Assembly: GCA_010405405.1 (NCBI GenBank)
Contig: MU004231.1
Span: forward strand, 1,805,784-1,869,783
Reading direction: 5' to 3'
DNA: 64,000 nucleotides
Source of the DNA: Microthyrium microscopicum
Lineage: Eukaryota
Under the pieces are notes generated by a model, which saw nothing but the letters and a program-made list of their open reading frames with translations, had not been told where the DNA came from and searched no databases. The position numbers and the translations under genes are program-made. Below, one piece after another: positions 29,474-52,600 of this stretch (positions are counted from its first letter, which is position 1; every line of letters begins with the position of its first letter).

Positions 29474-31873
29474 CTAAAGCTCTTCTTCCGAGTCATTTTC
29501 CACGGCCGGTTCCTTATGGACTTTGACTGTATCAATCTCTTCTTCCACAGTGGTCTCCACGATTGGCTTCTTAGCGACATTGCCTGTATCAACCTCTTCC
29601 TCCCAGGTGGTCTCCTCAGCCGGCTTCTTGTAAATAGTGTCTATATCAATGCCGGAGTCGGCAATATACCCATCCCAAAACTGTGTCGTGTCTTGACATG
29701 GTCCACTGTCTATAAATGCTGGTAGCTCCACAATCGGGTTCAGAAATGAAGGCCGCCACTCCGCCTGCTCTGCCTGAGCTTCTTTCCGAGGATCTCTTTC
29801 TGACCCTTCTTCATTATGATTAGGCGGGCTGGAGCCAGAAGGGATGATTGTAGGTGGGCTCAGTCTGGGTAGACTTGACCTAATCGGACTTCCTTCAGGT
29901 GGACTTGATCCTGGTGAAGCGGTACTAGGCGGGCTGGTACGAGGGTGGTTGGCACGGCTGGTCACAATTGACGGTCCAAGAGTGGAGTCCGGACTGATGC
30001 AGATAAAGGGCACACCCAGTAACTTTGTTGTGGCTTTAGGTTTCACTTGCCCGTCTTCGCTCCCTGGAGAACTCTCTCCGTGTGGCAAAGATTCAGAACT
30101 TTCCGTGTTTCGGTCATCATCAGGCTGTTCTCCAGGTTGTTGATTAAGCTGTTGCTCAGGCTGCTGTTTCGGCTGTTGATCGAATTGTTGATCAGACTGT
30201 TGAACCGGCAGTTTCCCACGTTGTTTTTCAGAAAGTTGCTTAGGCTGTTGATGTGGTGCTACAGATACCGGCGTTACTGTGCCTTCCAAAACTCTGGGAA
30301 CCAATCCTAGAGTTTTCGCCGATGCTGATGTACCATAGATTCGAGCGTTCAGTCTATTCATATTTGCAACTCCCGCGCCTGTCATATAAGCTTTAGTCGA
30401 AGTGGGCTCTACTGACCTTGTAACCACTTCTGTCAAGCGGGCCTTTCTTATTGTTTTGATAGCGGATTGAGTCCTCCTCGCGGGCAACGGGATCTTTGAT
30501 AAACTACCAGTTCTAACATGATTCGGCTTCTCAGACCTAGTGAATTGGTGTCTATAGCTTTCTTTATGCTGCTCTAGCTTAGCTTGAGTGGCGTCAAGCT
30601 CGATCCGTGGCGGCCAGTGTTCAAGACTAATCTGGTCAGTTTGACGAGGCTCTATATATCTAATATCTTCTAACTGCTCCTTAAATTGCACATTCCTAAC
30701 GCCCTTTGGAGCTTTGGAAGTCCTGGTGAATTCGGTCGGTCTAGTTTGTGCTTTGAATCCTGAACGATTTGTTGACCTTACCTGCTTTACATGTCCGGGC
30801 TGAAGCTTTGGTCCAGCCCGATCATACCACTCTGGATTGAGTGAAGGTTTGGTCTCGGAGTACCTATTCACGAGAGGTACATAGAAGGATGGATGACCAG
30901 CTGGCCAGATCCATGGCCGATTTACAGGATATCTTGGAGAGCCTACTGGGGCCTGAAGATCTTCTTCCGCCGTCCATTTGCTGCCAAAGGCTGAACCATA
31001 ATGATTAGTGATTGATGGGCCACGTACTTTATCTCGAGCTGTCGAGTCATTAGTATTGTTTGGTGTGGCCGAATCGCGATCCCCAATAATAGCTCGATGA
31101 AGTTTATTGTCGACTGAAGCACGATATGCTTTCATCTTGTCCTCAACTTCAGGGTCATTTTCGGGCCGCTCAAACTTGGGAAAGCAATCTGGGCATTTCT
31201 GGTGGTTTGGAGTCGATGCTTCTACTAATCTTCCTAAAGAAAAGCAGCACAAGAACCAATAAAAGTTAGAATCAGTGTATTTTGTCCGGCTCAGTAGCAC
31301 CAATATGAGTAGTGGTGTCGCGAACCAGATAACGCCAGGCTCTGACCTATAGTCTCGACCGTAGTAGCCGTGAGTACAGCGAGAAGCATAGATCCAGAGA
31401 CGGGAGCTGCATGTGTAAAATGCAACTATGGAGAAGAGGGATATCTGTTTTATCGGGTGTTCAGTCAACGTAGGCAGCATTCTTGAGGTACAGGTAAATA
31501 TCATAGCCCCAAATAATGCTTGTGCCAATCCTATGATTGCCTTTCTCAACACATTGCTCCAGTGAGAATAGAGGAAGCACAAGACGTGTAAAAGTAGATG
31601 TGGTAATACGGCTCCAAGTAACGATATAGTCAGCCATGTGAACCAGTTCAGAGGCTGATTACTGAGCTGAAGCAAGTATACAACCACGATTAGTGAGATT
31701 GCAGGGTGTGTGGCCGTCTTTACTTTCTGCAAGTAGCATCCTATGCAATGGTCTTCGAGGAATATGTTGTGGGGACAATTTGGGTAATCGTACTCATCTT
31801 CCACCTTGGATTGCTTCTGGGGAAACAAGATGGAAGTTAATAAGAGAACCAATGATGTGGAGGTGGATGACAT
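29474..31873 (-). CDS. Orphan 799-aa protein: multi-TM N-terminal third and disordered low-complexity C-terminus
   Basis: Uninterrupted 2.4-kb ORF. Several hydrophobic segments in the first ~220 aa, then QQP-type, SPP-rich and acidic ETTxEEExDT repeats. Confidence 0.7.
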   Translation of the reverse strand: MSSTSTSLVLLLTSILFPQKQSKVEDEYDYPNCPHNIFLEDHCIGCYLQKVKTATHPAISLIVVVYLLQLSNQPLNWFTWLTISLLGAVLPHLLLHVLCFLYSHWSNVLRKAIIGLAQALFGAMIFTCTSRMLPTLTEHPIKQISLFSIVAFYTCSSRLWIYASRCTHGYYGRDYRSEPGVIWFATPLLILVLLSRTKYTDSNFYWFLCCFSLGRLVEASTPNHQKCPDCFPKFERPENDPEVEDKMKAYRASVDNKLHRAIIGDRDSATPNNTNDSTARDKVRGPSITNHYGSAFGSKWTAEEDLQAPVGSPRYPVNRPWIWPAGHPSFYVPLVNRYSETKPSLNPEWYDRAGPKLQPGHVKQVRSTNRSGFKAQTRPTEFTRTSKAPKGVRNVQFKEQLEDIRYIEPRQTDQISLEHWPPRIELDATQAKLEQHKESYRHQFTRSEKPNHVRTGSLSKIPLPARRTQSAIKTIRKARLTEVVTRSVEPTSTKAYMTGAGVANMNRLNARIYGTSASAKTLGLVPRVLEGTVTPVSVAPHQQPKQLSEKQRGKLPVQQSDQQFDQQPKQQPEQQLNQQPGEQPDDDRNTESSESLPHGESSPGSEDGQVKPKATTKLLGVPFICISPDSTLGPSIVTSRANHPRTSPPSTASPGSSPPEGSPIRSSLPRLSPPTIIPSGSSPPNHNEEGSERDPRKEAQAEQAEWRPSFLNPIVELPAFIDSGPCQDTTQFWDGYIADSGIDIDTIYKKPAEETTWEEEVDTGNVAKKPIVETTVEEEIDTVKVHKEPAVENDSEEEL

Positions 31874-32352
31874 TATTTCCAGCAGTGATTTTGCTTACCA
31901 GAGCAAAAGCAGGTCAGAATTCGGTAATTGCTAGAAATCGTTCTTGAGTAGTCTCATTTGGCTAAAGTTATGATTATTTAGGTGGGAAGAATTGTAACCT
32001 CGAAGCATGATAGGCGATATAATCTATGCTTTGTCAAGGAAACAAAGGAACTATACTTCCTGGCTTTCTCTTCATGCGAAGATCTTTAAGCAACAAAGGG
32101 TTGCAGCCGAGAAAAAGAGAGCATAAGTCGTTGCATTGTATTTTGCAAGGACACTTGCTTTATCTTCTTCCACAATGGGATTGATCTTCTCATCAGCCTC
32201 GTAAATATTGGAATAGAGACTATTGCAATGCGAATCAACAAAGACGACTCATTCTGTGCAACTAAAAAGCACAGACATGTGCAATGGTTATTATAAGAGG
32301 TAGCAAAGCCTCGATTTCCGCAATTTATGGTGTCGATATACATTTGAAACCT

Positions 32353-37926: not shown

Positions 37927-39195
37927 CTACACTTTGGCAAACTCGTTACGCAAATCTTCTTCAACGTTGTTCAAGTACAACCATCCCAGCTGCCCTTCCG
38001 GACTAGATCCATCGTCTTCATGCCAAATTTGCTCTGGAGGTAACAATTTCCGTTCCGCTTCGGATAGACGCATACTGTTCATTTTGTTGGTAAGTTCCAG
38101 AACTTTGTCGACCCGGCCTTGTCGATAGCTCTGCCAAATCTTCACTGCACTGCAAAGGTCCAATCCAGGTGAGAGTGAGCTGAGCACCACTGCCAAACAC
38201 AGTGCATCTTCAAATGCTTGGTTGGCTCCTTGACCGGCTGTTGGGGGAATAGCGTGCGCTGCATCACCTGTCATGATTACACGACCAGTATTGGATGACC
38301 ACTCCTCCATCTTTGGAACAGTGTGAAAGGGCCAGATGGACATGGAGTGTGTCTCTGGCTCACTCGCTTGTCGTTGACCCTGTTGTACGAGCTCTGACCA
38401 GTCGTTCATGTCTGCTTGATGTAGCTGAATGAGCTCAGTCTTTTCCTTGAGAAGCATATCCCAGCCTGACCGGTCTTGCAGCGGATACTTGAATTGACGT
38501 CCTACAAAGATCTCGTTGCCATCTGCGTTTTGTGGTGCGTAAACGAACGAACCAGCTTTGCCTTGAAGAGATACTGGTAGTGGGAAGCCTTCCGGAAAGT
38601 TGAATTTTGACTTGGGTACGGCGAATGTGACGCCAATGAAACCAGAGTATTTTGCAACAATTCCAGGATGGATATACTGTCGGACTTTGGAATGAATGCC
38701 GTCTGCGCCGATGAGAACTTCGGCGGTATCCTCAACGGCATCAACAAAAGCGAACTTGACTCCAGTCTCATCTTCAGATATGACTTTGTCAAACTTCTTT
38801 CCATATTCTATGGTTATGCCTTGCTCTTCAGTCATTTCGCGCAGAATACGAAGCAAGGTCTTGCGGTAGATGCGAAGCGCGTTGTAGCCATATTTCTGCT
38901 CGTGGCCAAAGTAATACGTTCCAAGCTTCTCAGAATGGTCGTCGTCGTTGATGAAAGTCAACGTACTGAAGTTGAACCCCTCTTTCACTATGCGTTGGTA
39001 TGCCCCAATGCCATCCAATACCCGAAGAGCATTAGGCGAAAGCATGATGGCTCCTCCAAAGTCGTACGTGGGAGGCCGTAGCTCATAGAACTTGGGCTTG
39101 ATGCCTCGTTGATTGAGAGCTAGTCCTAGAGTGAGACCACCAAGGCCTGCGCCAATAATGGTCACTGTCTTTGGTGGAGCTGTCATGGAAGCCAT
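37927..39195 (-). CDS. FAD-dependent monooxygenase (group A aromatic hydroxylase, salicylate-hydroxylase-like)
   Basis: IIGAGLGGL (GxGxxG), LIGADGIHSKVR (DG motif), GDAAHAIPPTAGQGANQAFED (GD motif); intronless. Confidence 0.92.
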   Translation of the reverse strand: MASMTAPPKTVTIIGAGLGGLTLGLALNQRGIKPKFYELRPPTYDFGGAIMLSPNALRVLDGIGAYQRIVKEGFNFSTLTFINDDDHSEKLGTYYFGHEQKYGYNALRIYRKTLLRILREMTEEQGITIEYGKKFDKVISEDETGVKFAFVDAVEDTAEVLIGADGIHSKVRQYIHPGIVAKYSGFIGVTFAVPKSKFNFPEGFPLPVSLQGKAGSFVYAPQNADGNEIFVGRQFKYPLQDRSGWDMLLKEKTELIQLHQADMNDWSELVQQGQRQASEPETHSMSIWPFHTVPKMEEWSSNTGRVIMTGDAAHAIPPTAGQGANQAFEDALCLAVVLSSLSPGLDLCSAVKIWQSYRQGRVDKVLELTNKMNSMRLSEAERKLLPPEQIWHEDDGSSPEGQLGWLYLNNVEEDLRNEFAKV

Positions 39196-39758
39196 AAGTA
39201 AAGCTGTGTGGGCTCTGAAAAGGGTGGTCTGGGTTGTTGGGTAGTGGGATAAGATCTTAACGATACTGTAACCGATTCGTTTGATTGATAAATCAAGATG
39301 GCTTTCTGAACAAGCAGAACTATCATCTTTATAGCTTGGTGTTGGTTCATGTTGATCCTCAACATCTCAGCCTTATTGGGTCTTATCGGCCGATGTAGCT
39401 CCTTCGGCCGAGTCCTCGCATCCGACAGATGAGAGCCGAAGCTCACCACTATCTCTTCCAACACGATTTCAGTAGTCTGCACCCCGTAGAGTGTCTGCAA
39501 ATGCAGCATGCCAGAGCTTTTCCATTTTTCAAATAGTGTGATTGCACTGAACAAGATCTGCATCGTTCCATCAGCTTTCCTGCCCACCATCGCGCTCGAA
39601 GTTAGCGTACGCTTCGAAATCCTGTGACCCTGTCGCATTCAACAAATGGTCTGGGCGTCTTGGGAAATAAAGCACTTGGTCACAGACGGGAGTATAAAGT
39701 AGACACTGCACTCGATGGAGCTTAGATTTGTGTCATCCAAGTTATAGACACCAAAATG

Positions 39759-42090
39759 CTAAATTGGTACGTTCGAATTGAACGGCAATGAAGGCAGGCC
39801 TGCCACATCCGCAAACAGTTCCAAGTTCCAGTCCCCCAAAGTCGGCTCAAAGTCAAGACTAAAGTCTTGATTCAAAGTTGGATCCATGAAGAAGTCTGAC
39901 TGAGGTGTATGAAAAGAGTCTGAAGAGCTATATTCCTGCCGTCGGTTCTGGGCATCGCTCTGATGTCGCTCTTTCGACCACGTCATTATCCTGATCACGG
40001 CGAAGTGCATGAGCTTTTTTCTGCCATCTTCAAGCCCTGTCTGCTTGGTGAGGTCCGCCGCGCCTGCTAAGACTAGTAATTGCTTCAGTACTGGCCTAAG
40101 ATCTGGCTTCCGTTTGATGATGGATCGCATAGTATCGTCTATCATTCTCCTGACAGCAGATTTGGGAACATCCAATGCCATTGCTGGGCGGGTTTGCTCA
40201 ATATCGAAGAGCTGCTTCGAGGCTTTGTCGACGAGATTCATGGCATAGCATGCGCAGTGGGCAGCACGAATCACATCATCGCCGTTTAACGCGTCGAAAA
40301 CTTTCCAAGCTTTATCGTCGGTTATTGCTTCGAGTTCCGAAAGATGTGGGTCCAAAGTGTCCGAATTTGACATAACGGCCATACAAAAGAACACACATTT
40401 TGTTGCTGTAACGGCAAACTCAGTGTTGCTTAGCAGATTAGCCATATCAAAGTACTGGAGGACATAAGTGAACAACAAGATCATCGGTCGACGATAGCAC
40501 ATGTCCATCATTACCGATTGGAAGATCATGGATTGTTCTGATATTGTGTGGAACTTTTGCATCGTTGCTGATCGATAGAGTTCTAATTCTCCCAATAGTT
40601 TGTTGACTTCCAAAAAGGATGCTTCGCACTTGGAAACAATATTCAATGCCTGAATGCGCAAAGGCAAAGACTGAGATAAGGCCACTTGAAAAGAGGTCCT
40701 TTTTCCGTCTTCTCCATGTGAGATGGGATCGACAGAACTATCATATATGTCTTCTTCCTTGGGAAAATGGCAGGTATAAGTGATGGATTGAAGTAAACTT
40801 GGCATACCACAAGACAGAGAAGCTTCAAGATCTAATTCTGCAATAGTGTACCATATGCGACGTCGAAGTTCTGCTTGAAATGGGGACATCTTTGGGTCTA
40901 GCTCTTCCGGATCTATTTGCAGGCGTAGAGTGAGAGCCAACCGCACAAGGTCTCCAGTTGCCCTCCATACATCAGTAGAAGGGTATGCCAAAAGCCGTTT
41001 TGCTAGAACAAGAAGGCAACTGGTCAAGATCGCATTCGGTTGAGAGCGCTGTTTGGAGCCCAAAGAGGACAACCAGTGGTCCACCATAGAGCAGACCTTA
41101 GAAGGATTAGCTGAAAAATCGTTAGGGACATCCGAGTGCTGGTGCTTGTTTATTTGAGCCCCGATAAGTGCCGCTAACGCAAACTGTGGGATGAATGCTG
41201 CCCATAGAGAATCATCCATCGCTTGCCGGTTGTCGAGGAATTGATGGTATTTTCGAATGAAAGTCGTCAAATGCAATATCCGATAAGGTCTTTCAAAATA
41301 TGTATAGTATTGATTCACATACTGATCCAAAGTGTGTCGAGGCACTGCTGCTAGTATAGACATCAGATCGACATCTCCCCGAACTTGAAGGCTCTGTTTC
41401 TTTTTTGGAAACATGATTTGCAATTGCGCAAAATCCGCCTTGAAGGTTGGATCATCAAGAGTATGACATGAGTATTGTGCAACCTCTGGAAACTGTTTAA
41501 GGAGGTCAGCTAGGTAGAAAACAACTTGGAGAATGCACTTTAAGCAAGATATTAGAAACAATAGTGAAATTGAAGGTGAAGAAAAGGATATAAATCGACG
41601 GCATTGTTGAAAGCCCTACCCGTAGGACGCTTACCAAAGCCATAAGGGAGCGAGTATTGTTCAACCCATGATACTGTAGGTAAGATGGCTTCTTGATTTC
41701 ACCCGAGGAATCCGGTACTGTAGACGCTGTAATTGGCAAAAGATTATCTGCTCGGCGTTGGAAAAGTTTCTCTAGCCTTTGGACTTGTGTGCGGAGTTCA
41801 GCTATTTCGCGTGCGCCAGAAGGTACAAGAGCAGATGTAGGAAGCACACCATCCGCTGGACTGGGCTCGCCCGAACGCGACTCCGAGACTCTGGAAGGCG
41901 AGACAGCTTCATTGAAAGAGTCCCGTACATTACGACTCGTTTCATCATAACCGCAGCTATCCGCGCGGTGATATTTAACACATTGTGAACACGGTTGTTC
42001 TCTGTCGCATTTGAGCTTCTTCGAGCGGCAGTTGAGACATGATTTTACTGGTCGTGGACGCTTTCGAGGAACAAGAGATGCAGAAGACAT
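39759..42090 (-). CDS. Zn(II)2Cys6 transcription factor with fungal-specific TF middle domain, 2 exons
   Basis: CLNCRSKKLKCDREQPCSQCVKYHRADSC binuclear cluster; RILHLTTF; LVRLALTLRLQIDP...ELRRRIWYTIAELD...SCGMP. Confidence 0.92.
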
Positions 42091-43023
42091 GGCATGATAA
42101 ACAGATACAATTATACCACGAGTGTTTCGTTGATTTTGTGACAGTGGAGGAGGTTGGACAAAGAGATGAAGTTGGAGAAGCAGTCGCGTAAAATCATTTT
42201 GGCAGGAGAGATGAACATCGACTACCGTTTTTGCTTTTTTTCAGCCTTGTCACGCTCATTGTGTCTATGTCTTCAAAACACATCGTTAGACATACATGCA
42301 TTGATCAACAAATAAGTAAAATGGAATGGTAGGTTCTCCAAATTGAGAATCCAAAATCCCAATAAAGCTAGATATCTTTTAAAACGAAGCAAAACCAACG
42401 ATGCTAACACAACTTTGTTCTTAAGCATCGATTATCAAAAATAGCTCCTAATTTCGCCTTTGACATTGAGCTGATACGGAGCAACATGCAGTTTGGTGTT
42501 GACATCAAGTGGCCAAACTCTCAGTGTTGACTGCAGGTGCCTAAGGGCGATGAGTAGAGACGAGCATCACGCAGTCACTCGCCACAAACCATAAGACTTT
42601 TATCAATTGCCACCACCTTAAGATATCACATGTATGAGCGTACAGAATATGCCCTGAAAACGTCTGAATGGCACAAATTACATTAAATCTCCACACTTGC
42701 CCCACAGATTCCCCACGATTTCAATCAATGAACAAGCCCCCTTTGAAGGGCCATGGATGGTTTCTAACTGCATACGAACGTTTCGTGGTATCATTATCCC
42801 CAGATCCTATACTAAACTATCACTGCAAGCTCAGATCGTAATATATCTACGTATGATGTCCAAAATAGCGCGATTGCATTGGGCATTAGTCCAACTTTTT
42901 TTCAGCAATACTTCTGTTCGTCCGTAACGACCTCATCACGTCAAATATGTATGTCTTGGTTAAGTACCAGAGCTCGACCTGTAAGCTTTTTCAGGAAGGA
43001 AATCCAAGTTACTTCAACTCAGA

Positions 43024-44074
43024 ATGTTGCTCTATAGTATATTTGCTACCTTGGTAGCCAACATTGCCATCACTTCAGCAGCTGATCCGCCACCACCACA
43101 GCCTCTTCTTCTCTCCGATGCCAAAAAGTTACTGGTTCCAGATTATCCCAAAGAGGAACGCGGCTGGGTCCAAAACAGCGATGGCATGTACTACATCTCA
43201 AGTAAGTTTTGGTCCACCACCACCGCGATCCAACCCATCAGCTAACCTCGTCTCCAAGCCAACACGCACAGTAAGCAAACCTCCACATCCCCAGCTAACC
43301 AGCTCTCTGACTGCTTCAAGTGCCCGGAATAACCGGCGCGATGATTGACTGGTGGTTTGGCTACGTAACCACCACAGAACAATACATCCCTTGGCACCCC
43401 CTCGACCACGTCTACAGCGAATGGTCTGGCCCACACGGTAACTCCACCTACATCAACGGCAATCATCTCGTGTACGAGAAGATTGGCGGCGAACTCCAGA
43501 AGCTGCGTATCAACTTCCTCACACCCGCCAAATACTTTGGTGAAGGCTACAAGGGCTTATGGAAGACGGCGAATGTGAGCACGGCGGCGGTTGGCACCGT
43601 GAGCTTCTGGGAGGGCAAAGGAAAGGGGGTGGCTGGGTTCCAGGTGGGCCACCTATGTCATTTGATTCATGAGGAGGCGGATGGGATACGGATGAGGAGT
43701 CGATTTTGGTTGGGGGATGTTGATGGGTTGCCGTTGGATAAGGAGACAAGAAGTTCGATTGTGCCGATGAATTTGGTTACAGGATTGGGTAAGTTGATTC
43801 AGTGGTTTGAATGATGAAGGATCTGCGCTGTATCATGACATGCTGGCGAGCTGGCTTGATGTGATATGGTTGCAGATGGTGAGAGATGGAGTGATGGTGA
43901 ATTCGAGAGCCTGGGCAGTAATTATATTGTGCTAACAAGATTTCAGTTAAACACGCGACTGAAGAGATGGGCTACTTGAAGGGATTCTTAGCGGACTTGT
44001 ATCGTAAGGAAAACAAGATTGGACCCAAGAAGAGAGGAGAGAAGGTCATCAAGCCATGGTCACACGATTTTTAG
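43024..44074 (+). CDS. PhlG/phloretin-hydrolase-family C-C hydrolase with predicted signal peptide (exons 43024-43201, 43259-43270, 43321-43788, 43947-44074)
   Basis: Spliced product has ERGW...YYISTNTHMPGITGAMIDWWF, YIPWHPLDH, HLVYEKIGG, GHLCH...GIRMRSRFWLG and LVKHATEEMGYLKGFL, matching the DAPG-hydrolase family with its H/E/H/E metal ligands. N-terminus MLLYSIFATLVANIAITSA. Confidence 0.85.
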
Positions 44075-44344
44075 TCATTGTCGAAACGCCGTTGGATACT
44101 TGTACGAGATATGATAATGCCCACACGGCGTGTTAGGAGCAGATAGATGAAAAAAACAACGATATCCACTTCAAAGACTTCACATGGTCCATGAAACCCA
44201 TCCGATGTCGTATCCGAAAGAACTCTCAGCTCACAGCGGCAGCGCTTGCATCATCCAAATCCCTCAGTTTATCACGTTCTGATAAGTCTCTTTGAGGATC
44301 TGAATTATTTCCTATCCCTTTATTTCCCAAGCAGCGTCACCGAT

Positions 44345-45207
44345 ATGCAATTTTCCGCACATACAATTTGGTTTGCTATAGGCAAGACAATTGTATATGC
44401 TCTAGTTGCTAGAAATACGACATCACCCACGTAAGCCTAACCTTGTATGAATATCTGCCAGCACTGACGCTATCTAGAGGTCATTATATACCTCCGCCAG
44501 GTTGCCCATTCGGGATGGGAGGCCCAGAAGGAATATACCGAGATCCTCCTAGACCGCTCGCAGGTCCATGTATAGCAAAATCTCGTGAGCACCACAATAC
44601 AATTTGCGATATGTCTGACCTTTGGCATCATAGTACTATGTAGCAACACCGGAGGCCTGCCATGTTGCGGCACTAATCCGTGCGATGTTGACAAGACTTA
44701 CCAACCCCGGAACAGATGCTGTGTTGGATCAGGCCGTAAGCAATGGACCACGATCTCACTGCCTCCTAAGTGAGTCAAACAAGGAGTCGGGAAAACGCTG
44801 ATAGATATTTGAACAGACGCAGTGCAACCAGCCCAAGATTGTTGCGATGACAGAGATAGACGTTCGGTGAACAGCGGAACGCGTACCATATGCTGCATTC
44901 GTGGTGGTGGTAGGTATAGTTCTTCATGAACAAATTGGCATACATTGCTGAGCTGGTTTATAGATCCAAATCCCAGCGGCCCAAATGATATCGGTTCTGC
45001 AGCTTGCTGCGGCAATGCTAGATCTGGTCCCAATAGCTCTCAGGTGTGCTGCTACCAAGGCGGTGGTGAGTTTGGTGTGTACATGGTATAAAGACAGCGA
45101 CTAATCTTGTAGAATACGTTAATCCTAGCCAGGCTGGCTACCCGCATATTTGCTGTGATGGTATGTCGCCGATCGGTTTTTTTCCTTTCATAGCATGTCG
45201 AGGATGA
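44345..45207 (+). CDS. Cys-rich di-cysteine-repeat protein, copy 1 (194 aa, 19 Cys; exons 44345-44430, 44478-44584, 44634-44735, 44817-44909, 44964-45065, 45113-45207)
   Basis: All five introns are GT-AG with CTRAY-like branch points and the frame stays open: MQFSAHTIWFAIGKTIVYALVARNTTSPT-GHYIPPPGCPFGMGGPEGIYRDPPRPLAGPCIAKS-LLCSNTGGLPCCGTNPCDVDKTYQPRNRCCVGSG-HAVQPAQDCCDDRDRRSVNSGTRTICCIRGG-DPNPSGPNDIGSAACCGNARSGPNSSQVCCYQGG-EYVNPSQAGYPHICCDGMSPIGFFPFIACRG. Confidence 0.85.
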
Positions 45208-45558
45208 ATAAGGCATTGTCAATAGCTGTTTGCAACGCTGATGGAAGCTCGACAGTTTTCTTATAGATGGGAGATTGCAGTAGCTCTAATGATCATTAGA
45301 AAAGAAAAAAGTTAACAAGGCACAGAATTCAGCGCTATGCTCATTTGCATATTCTTATCCACTTCAACATCTTCACATGGCCCGGAAATCTAGCCAATCT
45401 CGAATTGAAAAAAATCCCAACTGAGAGTCTCTCTACCTAAATATGACGCGTGAAGAAGCGTGCAGACACTCCCATCATCTGTGCTTTTTGAGAAGCTTGG
45501 ATTTAAAATCTTTTGGGAGTTGATGTCTTCCATCCTAGCCTTTGCAAGCACCGCCAAA

Positions 45559-46449
45559 ATGCCATTATTAGCCTACGGAATCTGCTTGGCTCTAGGCAAG
45601 ACATCTGGCTCTGCTCTAACATCTAAGAACTCAACACCACCTTTGTGAAGCCAGCACTGTTTAATCACCTGCATTGCTGACGGCAACGATATAGAAGTCA
45701 ATATATACCTTTACCTGGCTGTCTATTTGTAATAGGGAGGACCAGAAGGTATATATCGAGATCCTTCCATGCCACCTGCATGTATAGCAAAATCTCGTAA
45801 GTCTCAATCTATGCTGGACACTAACAAGCATCTCTAACATTATGGCATCAGAACATCGTCTCGTTGGTGAACAAGCAATCCATCCGTATTGCGGAACTCA
45901 TCCTTGCGAGAATGACAAATCGATCTATCCTACTCAGAGATGCTGTGTCGGATCAGGCCGTAAGAATATTTCAAACACTTCAAACGCTGATGTTCATAAC
46001 CACTAACAAGGTATATCATTGAGCAGAACCAGTACAGCCATCCCAAGATTGTTGCGATGACAAATTCAGACATAGCGCGTTGAATGATACAGAAACTATA
46101 TGTTGTATTCGCGGCGGTGGTGAGTATAGCCCCTGATAGAACAAAAGACATTGTACGGTGCTGACTCTGTTTACTCTGATCATACATCGCATCTATGATA
46201 TCAACATAGTAGAGAATGCACTTGACCTCTGCTGCGGACATGGTTTTTTCTCCACGGGTCCTGGCGTTAATAGGCAAGTGTGTTGCTACGAAAGCGGTAA
46301 TGAGTGTGGTTATTTAGGAACATGGTTGAAGAATCATTGGACTGACACTTGTAGACCCTGTTGATCCATTCCAGCCTGCCTTTATTGGTCAAGTTTGCTG
46401 CTCTGGCCAGCCGCCCGTGCCTGGTCCTGAAGGTCGAACATATTGTTAA
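45559..46449 (+). pseudogene. Cys-rich di-cysteine-repeat gene, copy 2 (frameshifted)
   Basis: Same six-exon layout (MPLLAYGICLALGK...; YIPLPGCLF; GIYRDP..CIAKS; QRCCVGSG; QDCCDD...ICCIRGG; LCCG...VCCYES; VCCSGQPP...TYC-stop). One extra base at ~45731-45737 (ATAGGGA versus ATGGGA in copy 1) shifts the frame to a stop near 45870. Confidence 0.7.
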
Positions 46450-46813
46450 TACGAAGGAAGCATTATCAATAGCTGTTTGCTAAAGTGATCAAAGCTCGAT
46501 ATTTTGCTCATACATTGGACATTTTACAGTCCTAGCGATTTGTAGAGGAGATATAAATAAAGCAAAGAATTCAATTCCATGTATGGAGAGCATATTCATA
46601 TCCACTTCAGAATCTTCACATGGTATAGAAATGTAATGCGGCGTCATACTTTCGGGAATATAATCGGATGAGCATTCCCTTGACATCTCAAGAAGAGTAG
46701 AAGAAGAGCAGAAGCTGCTGCCGTGTCCAAGTCCTTAAAAATGATACTCTAGCAATTCATGCGTGGCGCCGAACGAGCACTCTTTTGGTACATTCCCAAG
46801 CACTGTCGCCAAA

Positions 46814-47722
46814 ATGCACATATTTGCTCAAATATTCTGTTTCATGTTTAGTATCATTGCTTTTAGCAACCTATTCGTAGCTGCTACTTGTATATTGCCC
46901 AGAAACTCGTCATCATCTATGTAAGGTCAACCTCCTACGAACAAACGCCAGTACTGACCCAAGGCCCTCTAGACGCAATTTTATACCGCCGCCGGGTTGT
47001 CCATTCGGCGCAGGTGGCGGAGGTATATACCGGGATCCGCCTCCGATGAACTATGGTACATGCATAGCAAAATCTCGTAAGTATCAAAAGCTCAAAACGC
47101 AATTTGGCACAACAGACAATCATCACTGACCACTACGCCACAGAGACTTGTAAACTATTCAGCGGTGATAAGTGTTGCGGTGCCAATCCATGTGGACCCG
47201 TTCGACTTCTGCCTCTCTCACTTAAGTGCTGTATTGGCTCGGGAAGTAAGCAATGAAACCTGTCTCACTTCTCAAAGAGAGTAACCGCTGACAACATGTT
47301 CTTTGCACAGTAATGAAACAGCCAGGGCAGGACTGTTGCGACGATAAACCTACGCGAATAAACGCGAACTTGAAAACATTTTGCTGTGTCCGCGGTGGCG
47401 GTGAGTACTCTAATAGTCCATGAATGGTAGCTTTTCACCGGACAGTGCTGAGTCTGTTTGTAGATGCCGACAGCATTTTTAGTGCGGACCCTCTGCCTTC
47501 GTCGTGCTGTGGAGGTTATACCTTTCCTCTTAGCAAATACGTGCCAATACCCATATGTTGCTATGAGGCTGGCGGTAAGTGCTGTCGATACATGAGAAGA
47601 GTCAGAGATTAACATATATCTCAGAAACCGTTGACTTCTTGAATGCCAACAATAAAGCAGCCAGGCTGTGCTGTTCTGGTCAGCCGCCAGTGGTTTCTTC
47701 CGGTATATCGAAATGCGCATGA
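46814..47722 (+). CDS. Cys-rich di-cysteine-repeat secreted protein, copy 3 (203 aa; exons 46814-46920, 46973-47076, 47144-47245, 47311-47400, 47464-47574, 47625-47722)
   Basis: Canonical introns and open frame: MHIFAQIFCFMFSIIAFSNLFVAATCILPRNSSSSI-RNFIPPPGCPFGAGGGGIYRDPPPMNYGTCIAKS-QTCKLFSGDKCCGANPCGPVRLLPLSLKCCIGSG-IMKQPGQDCCDDKPTRINANLKTFCCVRGG-DADSIFSADPLPSSCCGGYTFPLSKYVPIPICCYEAG-ETVDFLNANNKAARLCCSGQPPVVSSGISKCA. Clear signal peptide. Confidence 0.88.
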
Positions 47723-48045
47723 TAGGAGGAATGAAACAGTGCAAATATGGATAGCCATGTCAGCAAAGGTCTATACTGACTGGTTGTTAGGACGTATTTT
47801 GGAAAAGAAAAGGTTGGAAATGAAAATTGCGTCCAGTGACGCTTAATATTAGTATATATCAGTCCTGAAGTCCGAGGACGTTCGCTAGAATGTGAGAATG
47901 CAAGATGTCTAGCCGACTCTGATAGCACAAACCTTTTCTCCAAGAGCCTATCGACATTATTATTTGATTCATCAACCTCGCATTATTTTCATTCCCATCC
48001 TGTCTAAAAGTGTCGTGCATCTATTTTGGTGAAAAGTCATTTCCA

Positions 48046-49603
48046 TTACTGCTTGATCTCGTAAGTACGACGGAACATGTCATCAATGTCGGTGAGATAA
48101 TAGGTGCCGGGGAAGAGATGTTCGGTGCTTCCTTCGGGCTTGTAGTTCTTCTTCAAGTGTGCCTTTTCACGCAGGTTGCACATCTGGAAATCTGTTAGCC
48201 TTTTCCGGTCCACCGATCTCGGACACCTAATGGAGAAACTTCTTACATCATCGTAAACTTGTGGCTCCACAACACGTCGCGCATCAAGTCTCGCAGTAAC
48301 GTCGAGCTTGCTGACGATATCGGACAAACTGCCTCGAACTTTTAGTGAAAAAAGTGTGCTCGCCAAGCCACTGCCATAGCTGAACATGCCAATTCGCTTG
48401 CCCTCGATATCTTCGGCAGCATTGGTGACTAAGCTGCACAAGCTAGAGTAGACGGAAGCACAGTACATGTTACCGCACATGGTTGGTAGCGTGATGCCTG
48501 GAACAACCCGTTGCTGATATCTCTTCTTGGCGAGTGCCATGAACGTCTTTTCGATAGACTTGTCCGTGTATGAAGCATCCTTGCTAATTCCTTTGATCGA
48601 CTCGGGAACATCTGCGAAGATAGGATTGCTGGGATTCGCCAGGTAGTCGTTATATAACAAGCGAGCATATGATTTTGAAACGAGCTTGCATGTTGGGGCG
48701 TGGAAGCACATGTAGTCGAATCTGTCAACTGGAGACTCAATCTCCTTGGTTCCATTCACGCCGTTAGTACCATTGGCACCATTGGCAGCCTGCAGTGTCT
48801 TTTCTCGTGCATTATAAGCTTCGTAGCATGCATCAACCGCCTCAGTGTAGCATTTCAGGGAGAAGTGCCCATCGACAATTGGGTATTCGGAAGTCAAGTC
48901 TGGCTTGTAGAAATCGTACGCGTGAACGATGTAGCTTCCACGTAGACCTGGCTCAAAGGCAATTGGAGCATCGGGACCAATCAGCATGGCAACACATCCA
49001 GCTCCTCCAGTGGGTCTGGCGGCGCCCTTCTTGTACAAAGCAATGTCACCAGCAACGACAATTGCGTTGCGGCCATCCCAACCAGAGGACTCAACCCAGG
49101 CAACAGAGTTCAAGAGTGCATTTGTTCCGCCATAGCAGGCATTGACAGTGTCGATTCCTTCAATGTTTGTATTTCCTGAGCCTTGAAAGAGCTGCATGAG
49201 CACACTCTTGACAGATTTTGACTTGTCAAGCATGGTCTCAGTGCCGACCTCGAGTCTTCCGATTGACTTGGGGTCAATATTGTACTTTCGAAGGAGAGAT
49301 GAAGTGGTAGTAAGGGCGAGGGAGTAGATATCTATGTAAATGGTCAATATCAAATGTGCTTCAAGTGTTCAGCTGTCAAATTGCCAACCAACCTTCACGA
49401 TCGTCACAGAAGCTCATTTTGGTCTGGCCAAGACCAATTGTGTATTTTCCGGTGGACACGCCATCAAACTTCTCGAGTTCAGATTGCTCAACGCACTGAA
49501 AAGATTAGCGATCTGGTTGTGGGTATGGAGCAGTGGCTCATACTTGGCTGGGAAAGTAGATTTCCATGGCCTTGATGCCAATGTTGGTGGGTCTAGCGGC
49601 CAT
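48046..49603 (-). CDS. ERG13: Hydroxymethylglutaryl-CoA synthase
   Basis: [20 protein letters not shown] start, [19 protein letters not shown], catalytic [38 protein letters not shown]; three introns. Confidence 0.97.
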
Positions 49604-52600
49604 GATTGCGAGTTTCGAGGGTGGCTTTTGATATGAAAGTACTTCAGAGAGTTTCTACACGTTTTATTGTCAGTGAAACATCCAACAATGGCTGAAAGTG
49701 GGACAAGTAGCAGATAGCAGCCAAGTTATACAGTGGGGTGGGTTGTCAACAACAGGGGCTGTATGATGCATGAAAGGAAAACAGGAACGAAATATAGAGC
49801 GTCACATACCGATTGGGCGAGGTTTATGACTTGGAAAAGGTAGAAAGAGAGAAAAGGGATAGATAATGGGTGGCAGGAGACTATATTTTATCTTTGATCG
49901 GGGAATATTGGAAGAGAAATATGGGCTAGACGCGATTGACAGCAACCAGAGGCGGCAAGAGCAACCCACCCACTGTGCAAAATGCTGCAGGGAAAGAGCG
50001 ATGCGGTGTAGAGCTAATTGAGCCAATCGCAGTCAATCTTGCTGCAGGTCAAGCATCGTTCTTGCCAAACTCCCTGTTCGTTCTTGCAGATTCGGACGGC
50101 AGGGTTCAAGCGGGAGCTAGCATAATTACTTGCTTACTGTGTCACTTTCCTCTGCTTGATTAGACCTGTTCTAGCCAAGTTTGGACATTTGCTCTGTCTT
50201 ACGTGCTTATGTCATGATCTTCTGCATTGACTCCTGGACTCTCCTGCATGCGTCTTGTCTCTTCCTCAATTGATGCCCGGCTTCGGGACTTGTCTACTTG
50301 TGGAGTTATCTACTAGGTAGGTATTTCTAGGCTGCATTACAACGCTTGCCTCTTGTATCGTTACCTCATACCGATAGAGTGTACAATCTTGAGATGATTC
50401 TGTACTGCGCCACCATCGACGACGACGACCATGTACAAAATCAGGCCATTCTTCCATCATCTAGAGTACTGGCTGCATTCATCGCGCTTTACGGGCCTTT
50501 CCGATCTTGATCTACTGTCAATATCATCCGTTACTCGCATTAGCTACCATTGCCAAGACATATCAAACCTGCCATACAATAGCCATCTGCGCCTGAACCT
50601 TGCCTTTCCCTCGACATGTCGCACTAAAATGCAGCAAGAGTTGGAATTTCATTGAGATACGATTGAACTTCGATACCCTGTGGTTGCTTTGGTTGATGAC
50701 AAGCATATCCCCAAGCGCCATCAACAACCTCGCGATGTAGGGACGCTTCGAGTATTCTTGCCTGATCATTCATCGAGAAGAACAGCCATCATGACACACT
50801 CGTCAAAGTCGCCGACTACTGCCTAGTCCTCATCTTGTCCTGCCTGGCATCTGCAGTAGGCTTTCGGAGCACAGCACCGACATCAAATATTGAAAGCTCA
50901 TTGTTGACTCGATTACAGGCTCGAGGCTAGCAACTTCATCAATCAATCAGGAGTACAGGTACCACCAATTCAAGCTTGCTCCAGTCAGGCTTTCTTAGGC
51001 TGACTTAGGCATCTTGGGGTAGAGTGTTGAGAGTGATTGACATATGTGCCATGCTCAGGCATTGAAATGAAGTCGGGCCTCAGGAATCTTGGCTCGTATG
51101 GCCACTGATAGCACCACATGCTGATTTGCACAGGCTTTGGATGATCCCTATCCAACAATAGCCTTTACATCATGGGCCATTATCTCTCCATATGAGCGGA
51201 ACCGCATTTCCAGCTGCAGAGGGAAGTTGGGACATACCTCGCTCTCAAATGCTCATTGATATCGATAACAACCATTATGCTGGACATCAAGACAATCAAA
51301 CAGAATCGAGCGTCACTCGTAGTCTCGACACTTGACCATATTCAATTTTCTACACAGGGTGAGCCAAAGTCATTGGTCAACATGAAAATTTACACTGGAC
51401 CTCGGAGCAAGATCAAACTTCATAGAGAAAATGGAAAGATACCTTGGATACTTAGGTATATATGGAAGCTGGACGCAGACGAACTCAAGGTGAAAGAAAA
51501 CCGAAACCACTAATCCAGAACGCTAGGATCTACATCCGGGATTTGTACGTTACCGATTACTCCTTGTCAAAATTACAAGTACAGTGGAGGTAGACATGCC
51601 CTATTGCTGTCTTTGGTAGGTTAGCGGGCTTGAACAAGTTCCAGATCATGTTGGCAACAAAGTTTCTCTCATACTCGTCTCCCACATAGACGAAAATCTT
51701 TATCAAGAACACCCACAGAAGAGTATTTTATGGAATCCATTTGGATCTGATTCATAGAGTCTTGACACATACGACAGAATCAGGAATAGCGGAACCAATG
51801 CGAAAATGCAATCTCAGGTTTGTTCATATCCAGTGACTGGATTCCTGGCGGATTCAGTGCTTTGAACTTGGAGCGACTTCAACAGCATCAATCACAACAA
51901 AATGCCGCACCGGAAGCTCAAGACGAATAGATGCTATTCATTTCTGTGTTATGGACTATTGCAAGCGTAAATAATTCAAACATTTATCAAATAGTGTTAC
52001 CTGTAAACGAAAGTCAGGGCCACAGCACAGGCCATGCTGTTTATCGTATCCATCTCCAGCCAACAGGATCCAAGGATTTAATACTGATTAGATTCATCTT
52101 GGCTTACCGGTAGCTATTTTGGACAGATTTTAATCACAGGGATGAAAACACATGGGAACCAATCTGTCGGTGGTCATGTCCAGACGTCAAATCCCCAATG
52201 AAGACTAGAAAGAGATCATGGGTGGCTTGCAACATCGTTCCCTGTCAATCAACAATCAAAAGCATCAGTTCCTCGGTGCATTATATTTCAACTGTCCACT
52301 AGAGGGATCTGCTCACAAGGTCCTCGCCATGGAAAGGAAGGGCAGGGCCAATTCATATACATATGCATGATTTCTCCCATACCTCTTGCTGCGATGCTAG
52401 CCATCTTAGGAAACTTTACAGGGGATATGAACTATCTATGAAACGTGCATTCAATATCCGTTCAGATGTAGCGAGACCATCCTTCCAGCAAAATCAAACT
52501 CCACTTGCCATCTATCTTCCCCACACTCTTATCCAAGACCTCACGATCAGACTGATCGATAACCACTGGAACAATCAAATCTGCAATCTCACCACTTGCT

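Follow-up and report, generated by a model that had tools for sequence, protein, structure and literature searches.

The region 44345-47722 of the window (by which we mean the whole analysed stretch of 64,000 nucleotides from contig MU004231.1 of Microthyrium microscopicum) contains a unit of about 1.2-1.3 kb in three direct tandem copies, and the question it raises is what kind of cysteine-rich protein these copies encode and how this protein is related to galaxins, which it resembles in its layout. The organism is a Dothideomycete whose order is thyriothecial and epiphyllous, according to the available part of the source (bioRxiv 10.1101/2020.03.13.989582). Our analysis revealed here a transcribed and mis-annotated orphan family, the architecture of which is of a known kind and has not previously been listed for fungi in the sources covered. 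With a probability of about 0.5, we propose that the intact genes encode orphan secreted proteins made of disulfide-chained hairpins, probably convergent on the galaxin layout and acting as surface or matrix binders. The finding concerns two intact genes of one species.

Gene models and transcripts

The initial annotation, made from the sequence alone, postulated three adjacent paralogous genes for proteins of about 200 aa. Three tandem paralogues are indeed present, but only two proteins are supported, because copy 2 is a probable pseudogene. As for copies 1 and 3, the six-exon structure proposed for them holds: both give open frames (194 and 203 aa), and their introns possess GT..AG ends and branch-site-like motifs. 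No copies beyond these three were found by tblastn within the 64-kb window.

Evidence on splicing is provided by one public run (X1), the type of which was guessed as RNA and which was aligned to positions 42500-50500. Ten joints were found in the cluster and its neighbours, and since all of them have GT..AG ends on either strand, X1 contains spliced RNA. Three joints, supported by one contig each, lie exactly at predicted introns (44430/44478 and 44584/44634 in copy 1 and 47245/47311, i.e., intron 3 of copy 3, where the shorter side has 30 letters), so that X1 supports 3 of the 10 predicted introns of copies 1 and 3. In line with the earlier expectation, some introns of both genes were found spliced; one contig, which may represent DNA or pre-mRNA, passes unspliced through the first two introns of copy 3. 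Eighteen of the 20 X1 contigs are at least 99% alike to the window, and the run may originate from the same isolate. X1 does not cover the bins 44903-45970 and 47573-47839; this lack of coverage is uninformative on expression, and the depth of the X1 contigs cannot be used to rank genes.

Both public proteins of M. microscopicum found by the exon 2 profile map to this locus, and both records are mis-spliced. KAF2673149.1 goes out of frame past the second exon of copy 3 and omits the fourth. In KAF2673148.1 (A0A6A6UPX9), the acceptor chosen for intron 2 of copy 1 lies further downstream, copies 1 and 2 are fused, and the record carries the misleading UniRef label 'Hydrophobin'. The joints 44584/44634 and 47245/47311 contradict the public models and fit the present ones; in other words, the exon model proposed earlier is superior to the public annotation at two of the three joints that can be tested with RNA.

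In copy 2, the first donor, at 45645, is weak, a frameshift near 45734 divides the shared N-terminal motif between two frames, and the sites homologous to those of the intact copies no longer provide an acceptor for intron 4 (near 46177) or a donor for intron 5 (near 46300). Hence, the motif claimed to be common to all copies is shared by them, but in copy 2 it is not readable in one frame. Other splice sites are present near the two lost ones, and among those noticed none mends the frameshift. Seventeen of the 19 scaffold cysteines are retained. The frameshift, as read from the assembly, sits in a stretch uncovered by X1; the X1 contig 46177-46547 spans intron 5 ungapped and may represent DNA or pre-mRNA. 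A single assembly error behind this picture is unlikely, considering that there are several separate lesions and that the intron 5 region is matched by the X1 contig without differences. Repeat-induced point mutation was rejected as the cause of the decay, since the dinucleotide indices resemble the window average.

Cysteine scaffold and exon repeats

The cysteine pattern of copy 1 is C-21-C-6-C-7-CC-4-C-11-CC-12-CC-15-CC-18-CC-12-CC-17-CC-13-C, and all 19 of these residues, including the seven CC doublets, are kept in copy 3, exactly as had been described. The precursor encoded by copy 3 has 21 cysteines, namely, one in the signal peptide, C26 just after it and the 19 of the scaffold, which leaves 20 in the predicted mature chain and agrees with the extra cysteine noticed before. 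The following observations show this pattern to be more than a product of chance. The cluster (3,378 nt) contains 22 TGYTGY hexanucleotides vs 84 in the remaining 60,622 nt; 7 of the 19 shared cysteines have undergone a synonymous codon change between copies 1 and 3; outside the cysteines, just 32 of 110 positions in the repeat region agree between the two copies; and, over 190 codons, the proportion of nonsynonymous differences (pN, 0.39) is lower than that of synonymous ones (pS, 0.68). The corresponding rates are about 0.55 (dN) and about 1.8 (dS, near-saturated). These codon comparisons show purifying selection on the cysteines, and we regard the two genes as functional with high confidence.

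Both proteins start with hydrophobic leaders, the best 11-residue hydropathy being 2.74 in copy 3 and 1.68 in copy 1 (as assessed by hydropathy scoring only), and an N-x-S/T sequon is located right after the leader in all three copies. Secretion is very likely for the copy 3 protein and somewhat favoured for that of copy 1. The proteins contain about 11% cysteine, have pI values of 7.9 and 8.5 and hydropathies of -0.46 and -0.03, and in 12 of the 14 doublets a glycine follows CC within four residues.

The exon structure reflects the repeats. Exon 1 encodes the leader and the sequon, and exon 6 the last CC and the lone cysteine, while introns 2-5 of copies 1 and 3 are all in phase 1, each of them four residues past a cysteine. 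The similarity between exons (588.5) was reached by none of 300 cysteine-fixed shuffles (351.8 +/- 39.7), the compared pairs not being independent. Because one repeat corresponds to one phase-1 exon, local exon duplication is indicated, and the whole pattern would fit tandem duplication of one symmetric phase-1 exon. Exon 2 may be a degenerate repeat, as its intron sits four residues past a cysteine in phase 1, like introns 3-5.

Galaxins and other candidate relatives

The queries used in searching for relatives were exon pieces or the public models, which are partly incorrect, and similar mis-annotation may affect relatives in other fungi. A word-based protein search with the exon 2 profile gave two matches among 536 candidates, both being this locus, and the one with exons 4 and 5 gave a single match among five candidates, i.e., itself. 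HMMER, run with a nine-sequence repeat profile against 1,835,955,588 protein representatives, returned the locus and one chance match, and no galaxin; this match, P0003, an unnamed simple-repeat open reading frame aligned with 11 profile positions, was rejected as a relative. Pfam assigned no family to 13 exon pieces (short ones, which limits sensitivity) or to the two public models, and four longer pieces including intron sequence gave a chance-level DUF2527 match only (one of four, E 0.084). Among PDB sequences, antibody 'CCG' matches with E of at least 0.17 were the only ones, a second query giving none; ESM Atlas contained nothing at or above 0.9 and no match with TM of 0.5; and neither the pattern matches in metagenomes (0 of 113 and, in a second scan, 0 of 67) nor those in viral contigs (0 of 13) were confirmed. 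In the literature searched, the coverage of which excludes most subscription journals, we found no fungal di-cysteine repeat family and, for fungal proteins, no regular chain of seven doublets in which each repeat has its own exon. Copies 1 and 3 are an orphan, species- or lineage-restricted pair in the collections searched. Two earlier suggestions agree with this: that the family may be undescribed (the queries gave no match to a described family in Pfam, PDB or 1.84 billion representatives) and that a lineage-restricted family has been expanded by local duplication (the copies are in tandem and lack relatives in these collections).

Hydrophobins, according to the accessible part of PMC3020181, have eight to ten cysteines and two CC doublets with two single cysteines between them. 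The cluster proteins are similar to hydrophobins of classes I and II in that they are small, cysteine-rich, probably secreted and possess CC doublets; they differ in having 19-20 cysteines, seven doublets with at most one cysteine between them, negative hydropathy and no Pfam match. We rejected the 'Hydrophobin' label, since the eight-cysteine C-CC-C-C-CC-C pattern is absent, there is no Pfam hydrophobin match, and the label belongs to a mis-spliced fusion. This supports the initial statement that the pattern is not that of hydrophobins, and the CFEM and cerato-platanin families, too, gave no Pfam match on the pieces scanned. CBM52/Carb_bind (PF10645), CBM52 being a fungal family, and IGFL (PF14653) match bacterial galaxin repeats weakly and are therefore neighbours of the layout; neither matched any cluster piece scanned. 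In being small, having many short exons, undergoing birth and death in tandem and being mangled or missed by annotation, the cluster resembles lineage-specific small secreted cysteine-rich proteins of fungi.

The closest likeness is to galaxins and calcarins. In the available parts of the sources, the galaxin repeat is about 30 aa long and contains two CC doublets (PMC2726143), a lone cysteine stands at either end of the CC run in calcarins and galaxins, and in their AlphaFold models each CC starts a short beta-hairpin, the first cysteine being bonded to the second one of the preceding hairpin; the question of a single or a multiple origin of galaxin-like proteins is described there as open (PMC12419799). 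The fungal proteins share with them, as far as these parts describe it, a leader of putatively secreted type, about 11% cysteine, repeats of about 30 aa with two CC and a glycine turn after CC (PMC2726143, PMC12419799); moreover, C-7-CC ... CC-13-C in both copies corresponds to lone cysteines flanking the CC run, with more lone cysteines upstream. In contrast to 10-23 doublets in calcarins (3-5 in small bacterial members), as given in the material available, there are seven in the fungal proteins. Their CC spacing is 12-19 (16, 12, 15, 18, 12, 17 and 16, 12, 14, 18, 15, 19, with 6 of 12 values inside the range of 10-15 typical of galaxin repeats) vs mostly 11-14 in galaxins and calcarins, and, unlike galaxins, they have extra cysteines and a unique Pro/Gly-rich head, without detectable sequence similarity. 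Tyr or Phe at position -7 accompanies 105 of 206 galaxin doublets and none of 14 fungal ones, a contrast that is inflated because the galaxin set was seeded with the motif; Y[DN] at -7 does not occur in the fungal proteins. Galaxin-type proteins were obtained with a DNA pattern, which gave 29 loci, at most 28 of them containing an open frame with the motif.

Tests of sequence similarity gave a different picture from that of the layout. PF24748 matched 5 of 10 control proteins, namely, the five galaxin-like ones, and none of the 13 exon pieces, the two public models (one with two correctly joined repeats) and the four longer pieces above the cut-off. When three wider home-made galaxin profiles were applied at two settings to the full spliced repeat regions, 26-364 of 500 cysteine-fixed shuffles scored as well, and hhalign of the fungal against the galaxin repeats gave probabilities of 4.7% and 2.3%. 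A galaxin-profile search added 31 PF24748 proteins (49-263 aa), of which the four species-named ones are from molluscs and the others are unnamed or unclear, fungal members being possible among them. The supplement of PMC12419799, in its available part, has no fungal rows among 623 PTHR34490 proteins in 14 groups. Thus, the cluster proteins are laid out like galaxins but do not qualify as such in the membership tests applied to their sequences. The initial view, in which galaxin is the nearest analogue, perhaps by convergence, is in line with the matching cysteine layout and the lack of robust similarity beyond cysteines, and we consider it probable that the layout arose in the fungus independently.

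Several observations were made on galaxin-like proteins of bacteria. A genome bin of Anaplasmataceae contains a very long galaxin-repeat frame (L014 1-2445 and L015 1-1260), with 60 CC in 815 aa of L014 and a PF24748 match at E 1e-112 for L015; it is possibly a surface protein of a symbiont or else contamination from the host. Galaxin repeats also occur in Acidobacteriota, Fibrobacteria and an unclassified bin (L010 1078-1407, L019 1033-1365, L012 1072-1422, L018 853-2439), including small secreted-type proteins of 110 aa. Frames of Kiritimatiellia (L016, L022, L028), which we take to be RHS-type, have a short galaxin-like CC motif at their end, and five bacterial proteins (L003, L007, L009, L013, L020; the first of them also with a Hint domain) have 14-32 closely spaced CC and are unrecognised by PF24748. 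There is no bacterial row in the PTHR34490 list of 623 in the available part of PMC12419799.

Proposed fold and function

According to our proposal, copies 1 and 3 would encode small secreted glycoproteins consisting of a signal peptide, a Pro/Gly-rich head and short beta-hairpins arranged in a row. Every CC would open a hairpin with a glycine turn, the second cysteine of a doublet being bonded to the first cysteine of the next one and a lone cysteine closing each end, so that seven doublets and two lone cysteines would form eight bonds, matching the galaxin/calcarin count. In copy 1, the chain would begin with C60 or C67, continue through C75/76, 93/94, 107/108, 124/125, 144/145, 158/159 and 177/178 and end at C192. 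With the three cysteines left, copy 1 would have one more bond and one free cysteine, which could join it to other proteins, while copy 3 would reach ten bonds via C26. We regard this chained-hairpin fold as reasonably likely. It would be a stiff non-enzymatic rod with variable loops, acting in binding or cross-linking at the surface of hyphae or fruiting bodies; such a role is favoured due to the absence of a catalytic motif and the variable loops of the rod, and is put forward tentatively.

A number of results weigh against this proposal. The leader of copy 1 is weak, with a lysine inside the hydrophobic stretch. X1 confirms no more than three of the 10 introns in the two intact genes, seven being left without such support, and the contig that passes the first two introns of copy 3 ungapped (46880-47245) may represent DNA or pre-mRNA. 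A 64-residue model of two repeats has strands on the xxCCxx stretches, but its confidence is low (predicted local distance difference test, pLDDT, 46.8), as is that of the fused public model (37.8), neither being a usable structure, and fold searches gave no match. The CC spacing exceeds that of galaxin-type repeats, the mode of which is 11. Finally, with the first galaxin profile, built from 6 proteins, cysteine-fixed shuffles scored as well in just 8 and 2 of 300 cases for copy 1 and in 19 and 16 of 300 for copy 3, and, in view of this faint excess, remote homology is conceivable.

The latter excess is one of the arguments for regarding the cluster proteins as true, highly diverged members of the galaxin-repeat superfamily (PF24748/PTHR34490), inherited or acquired, which would be the first in fungi. 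The same order of lone cysteine, CC run and lone cysteine, the repeat of about 30 aa with two CC (PMC2726143, in its available part), one C-x11-CC step as in galaxins and the existence of a donor pool, as galaxin repeats are present in bacteria, archaea and algae, are also in its favour. Nevertheless, we find this explanation unlikely, considering that PF24748 recognises its controls and no fungal piece, that the wider profiles and hhalign are negative, that Tyr or Phe at -7 is missing from all 14 fungal doublets (even though the galaxin share is inflated by seeding) and that the fungal repeat profile drew no galaxin from 1.84 billion proteins. Equally improbable to us is that the same genes and fold provide antimicrobial or microbiome-shaping factors directed at leaf-surface competitors. 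PhlG-type enzymes break down a Pseudomonas antibiotic, and a gene with a DAPG-hydrolase domain, the product of which has a hydrophobic N-terminus, lies directly upstream of the cluster; however, gene neighbourhood is weak evidence in fungi. The proteins are mildly basic and their loops have diverged rapidly between the paralogues, but the net charge is small, above all in copy 1 (14 K+R vs 12 D+E), and the Pfam scans gave no match to a defensin-like family. Squid galaxin repeat peptides are described as inhibiting bacteria in the available part of PMC12773714.

Two further explanations seem to us very improbable. The high cysteine content and the CC doublets might serve for metal binding, either metallothionein-like or in copper/zinc scavenging, instead of forming disulfides, but the signal-peptide-like leaders and the conserved sequon suggest passage through the oxidising secretory pathway, the spacing of cysteines is wide and regular, and the mature chain of copy 3 has no histidine. 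Alternatively, the whole cluster might be decaying and produce partial or mis-spliced transcripts only, with no protein of consequence, as could be supposed from the broken copy 2, the unspliced contigs across introns 1-2 of copy 3 and the small share of confirmed introns; against this stand the two long open frames, the conservation of 19 of 19 cysteines at near-saturated dS, and the exact spliced joints at predicted sites.

The features of the locus and its neighbourhood are listed below. Upstream, the monooxygenase and Zn2Cys6 genes and the divergent DAPG-hydrolase-domain gene are grouped together (37927-43950) and are possibly a small phenolic-detoxification unit. One X1 joint in the latter gene (43201-43321) has between its sides a 12-nt stretch that matches the window near 43259-43270 and looks like a micro-exon, and another (42980/43038) spans the apparent start region of this gene. 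Downstream, the HMG-CoA synthase gene and copy 3 are arranged tail to tail; X1 contigs extend to 47876, and four introns of the synthase gene are spliced in them. The 806-aa frame has no Pfam family above chance level.

Features of the cluster and of its surroundings in the window
Feature	Position	Strand	Evidence or remark
Copy 1, intact six-exon gene, 194 aa, 19 Cys, 7 CC	44345..45207	+	GT..AG gene model; introns 1 and 2 spliced in X1; public model P0002 has the same intron 4
Copy 1 exons	44345-44430, 44478-44584, 44634-44735, 44817-44909, 44964-45065, 45113-45207	+	
Exon 2 of copy 1, Pro/Gly-rich motif with two Cys, best conserved part	44478..44584	+	71% identity between copies 1 and 3; pN 0.20
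Exons 3-5 of copy 1, all phase 1-1, with one CC-x(12-16)-CC-xxx-G repeat per exon	44634..45065	+	Alignment A5
Copy 2, probable pseudogene	45559..46449	+	Exons read one by one and compared at the DNA level
Copy 3, intact six-exon gene, 203 aa, 21 Cys, 7 CC	46814..47722	+	GT..AG gene model; intron 3 spliced in X1
Copy 3 exons	46814-46920, 46973-47076, 47144-47245, 47311-47400, 47464-47574, 47625-47722	+	
Conserved upstream non-coding element, about 180-215 nt 5' of each ATG	44154..44199, 45347-45392, 46590-46635	+	Repeat family D2
Conserved 3' non-coding stretch after copies 1 and 2	45206..45276, 46453-46523	+	Repeat family D3, 76% identity, blastn
806-aa open frame	29474-31894	-	
FAD-dependent monooxygenase gene	37927-39366	-	
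Zn2Cys6 transcription factor gene	39759-42240	-	
DAPG-hydrolase-domain gene	from near 43024	+	
HMG-CoA synthase gene	48046-49810	-	

In a broader sense, fungi might have independently invented a galaxin-type hairpin rod by tandem duplication of one phase-1 exon and have used it as a surface scaffold or an antimicrobial in leaf-surface fungi, an idea that we offer with some reservation. If true, such an architecture would be recorded here for the first time in a fungal protein, as a direct example of convergence, and the cluster would preserve the steps of the process, namely, one exon per repeat and a degenerate repeat as the head. A small disulfide-rich scaffold with variable loops could be produced and structurally solved, and a fungal protein that has the galaxin cysteine layout, no sequence link to galaxins and a visible history of exon duplication would be a test case for galaxin origins.

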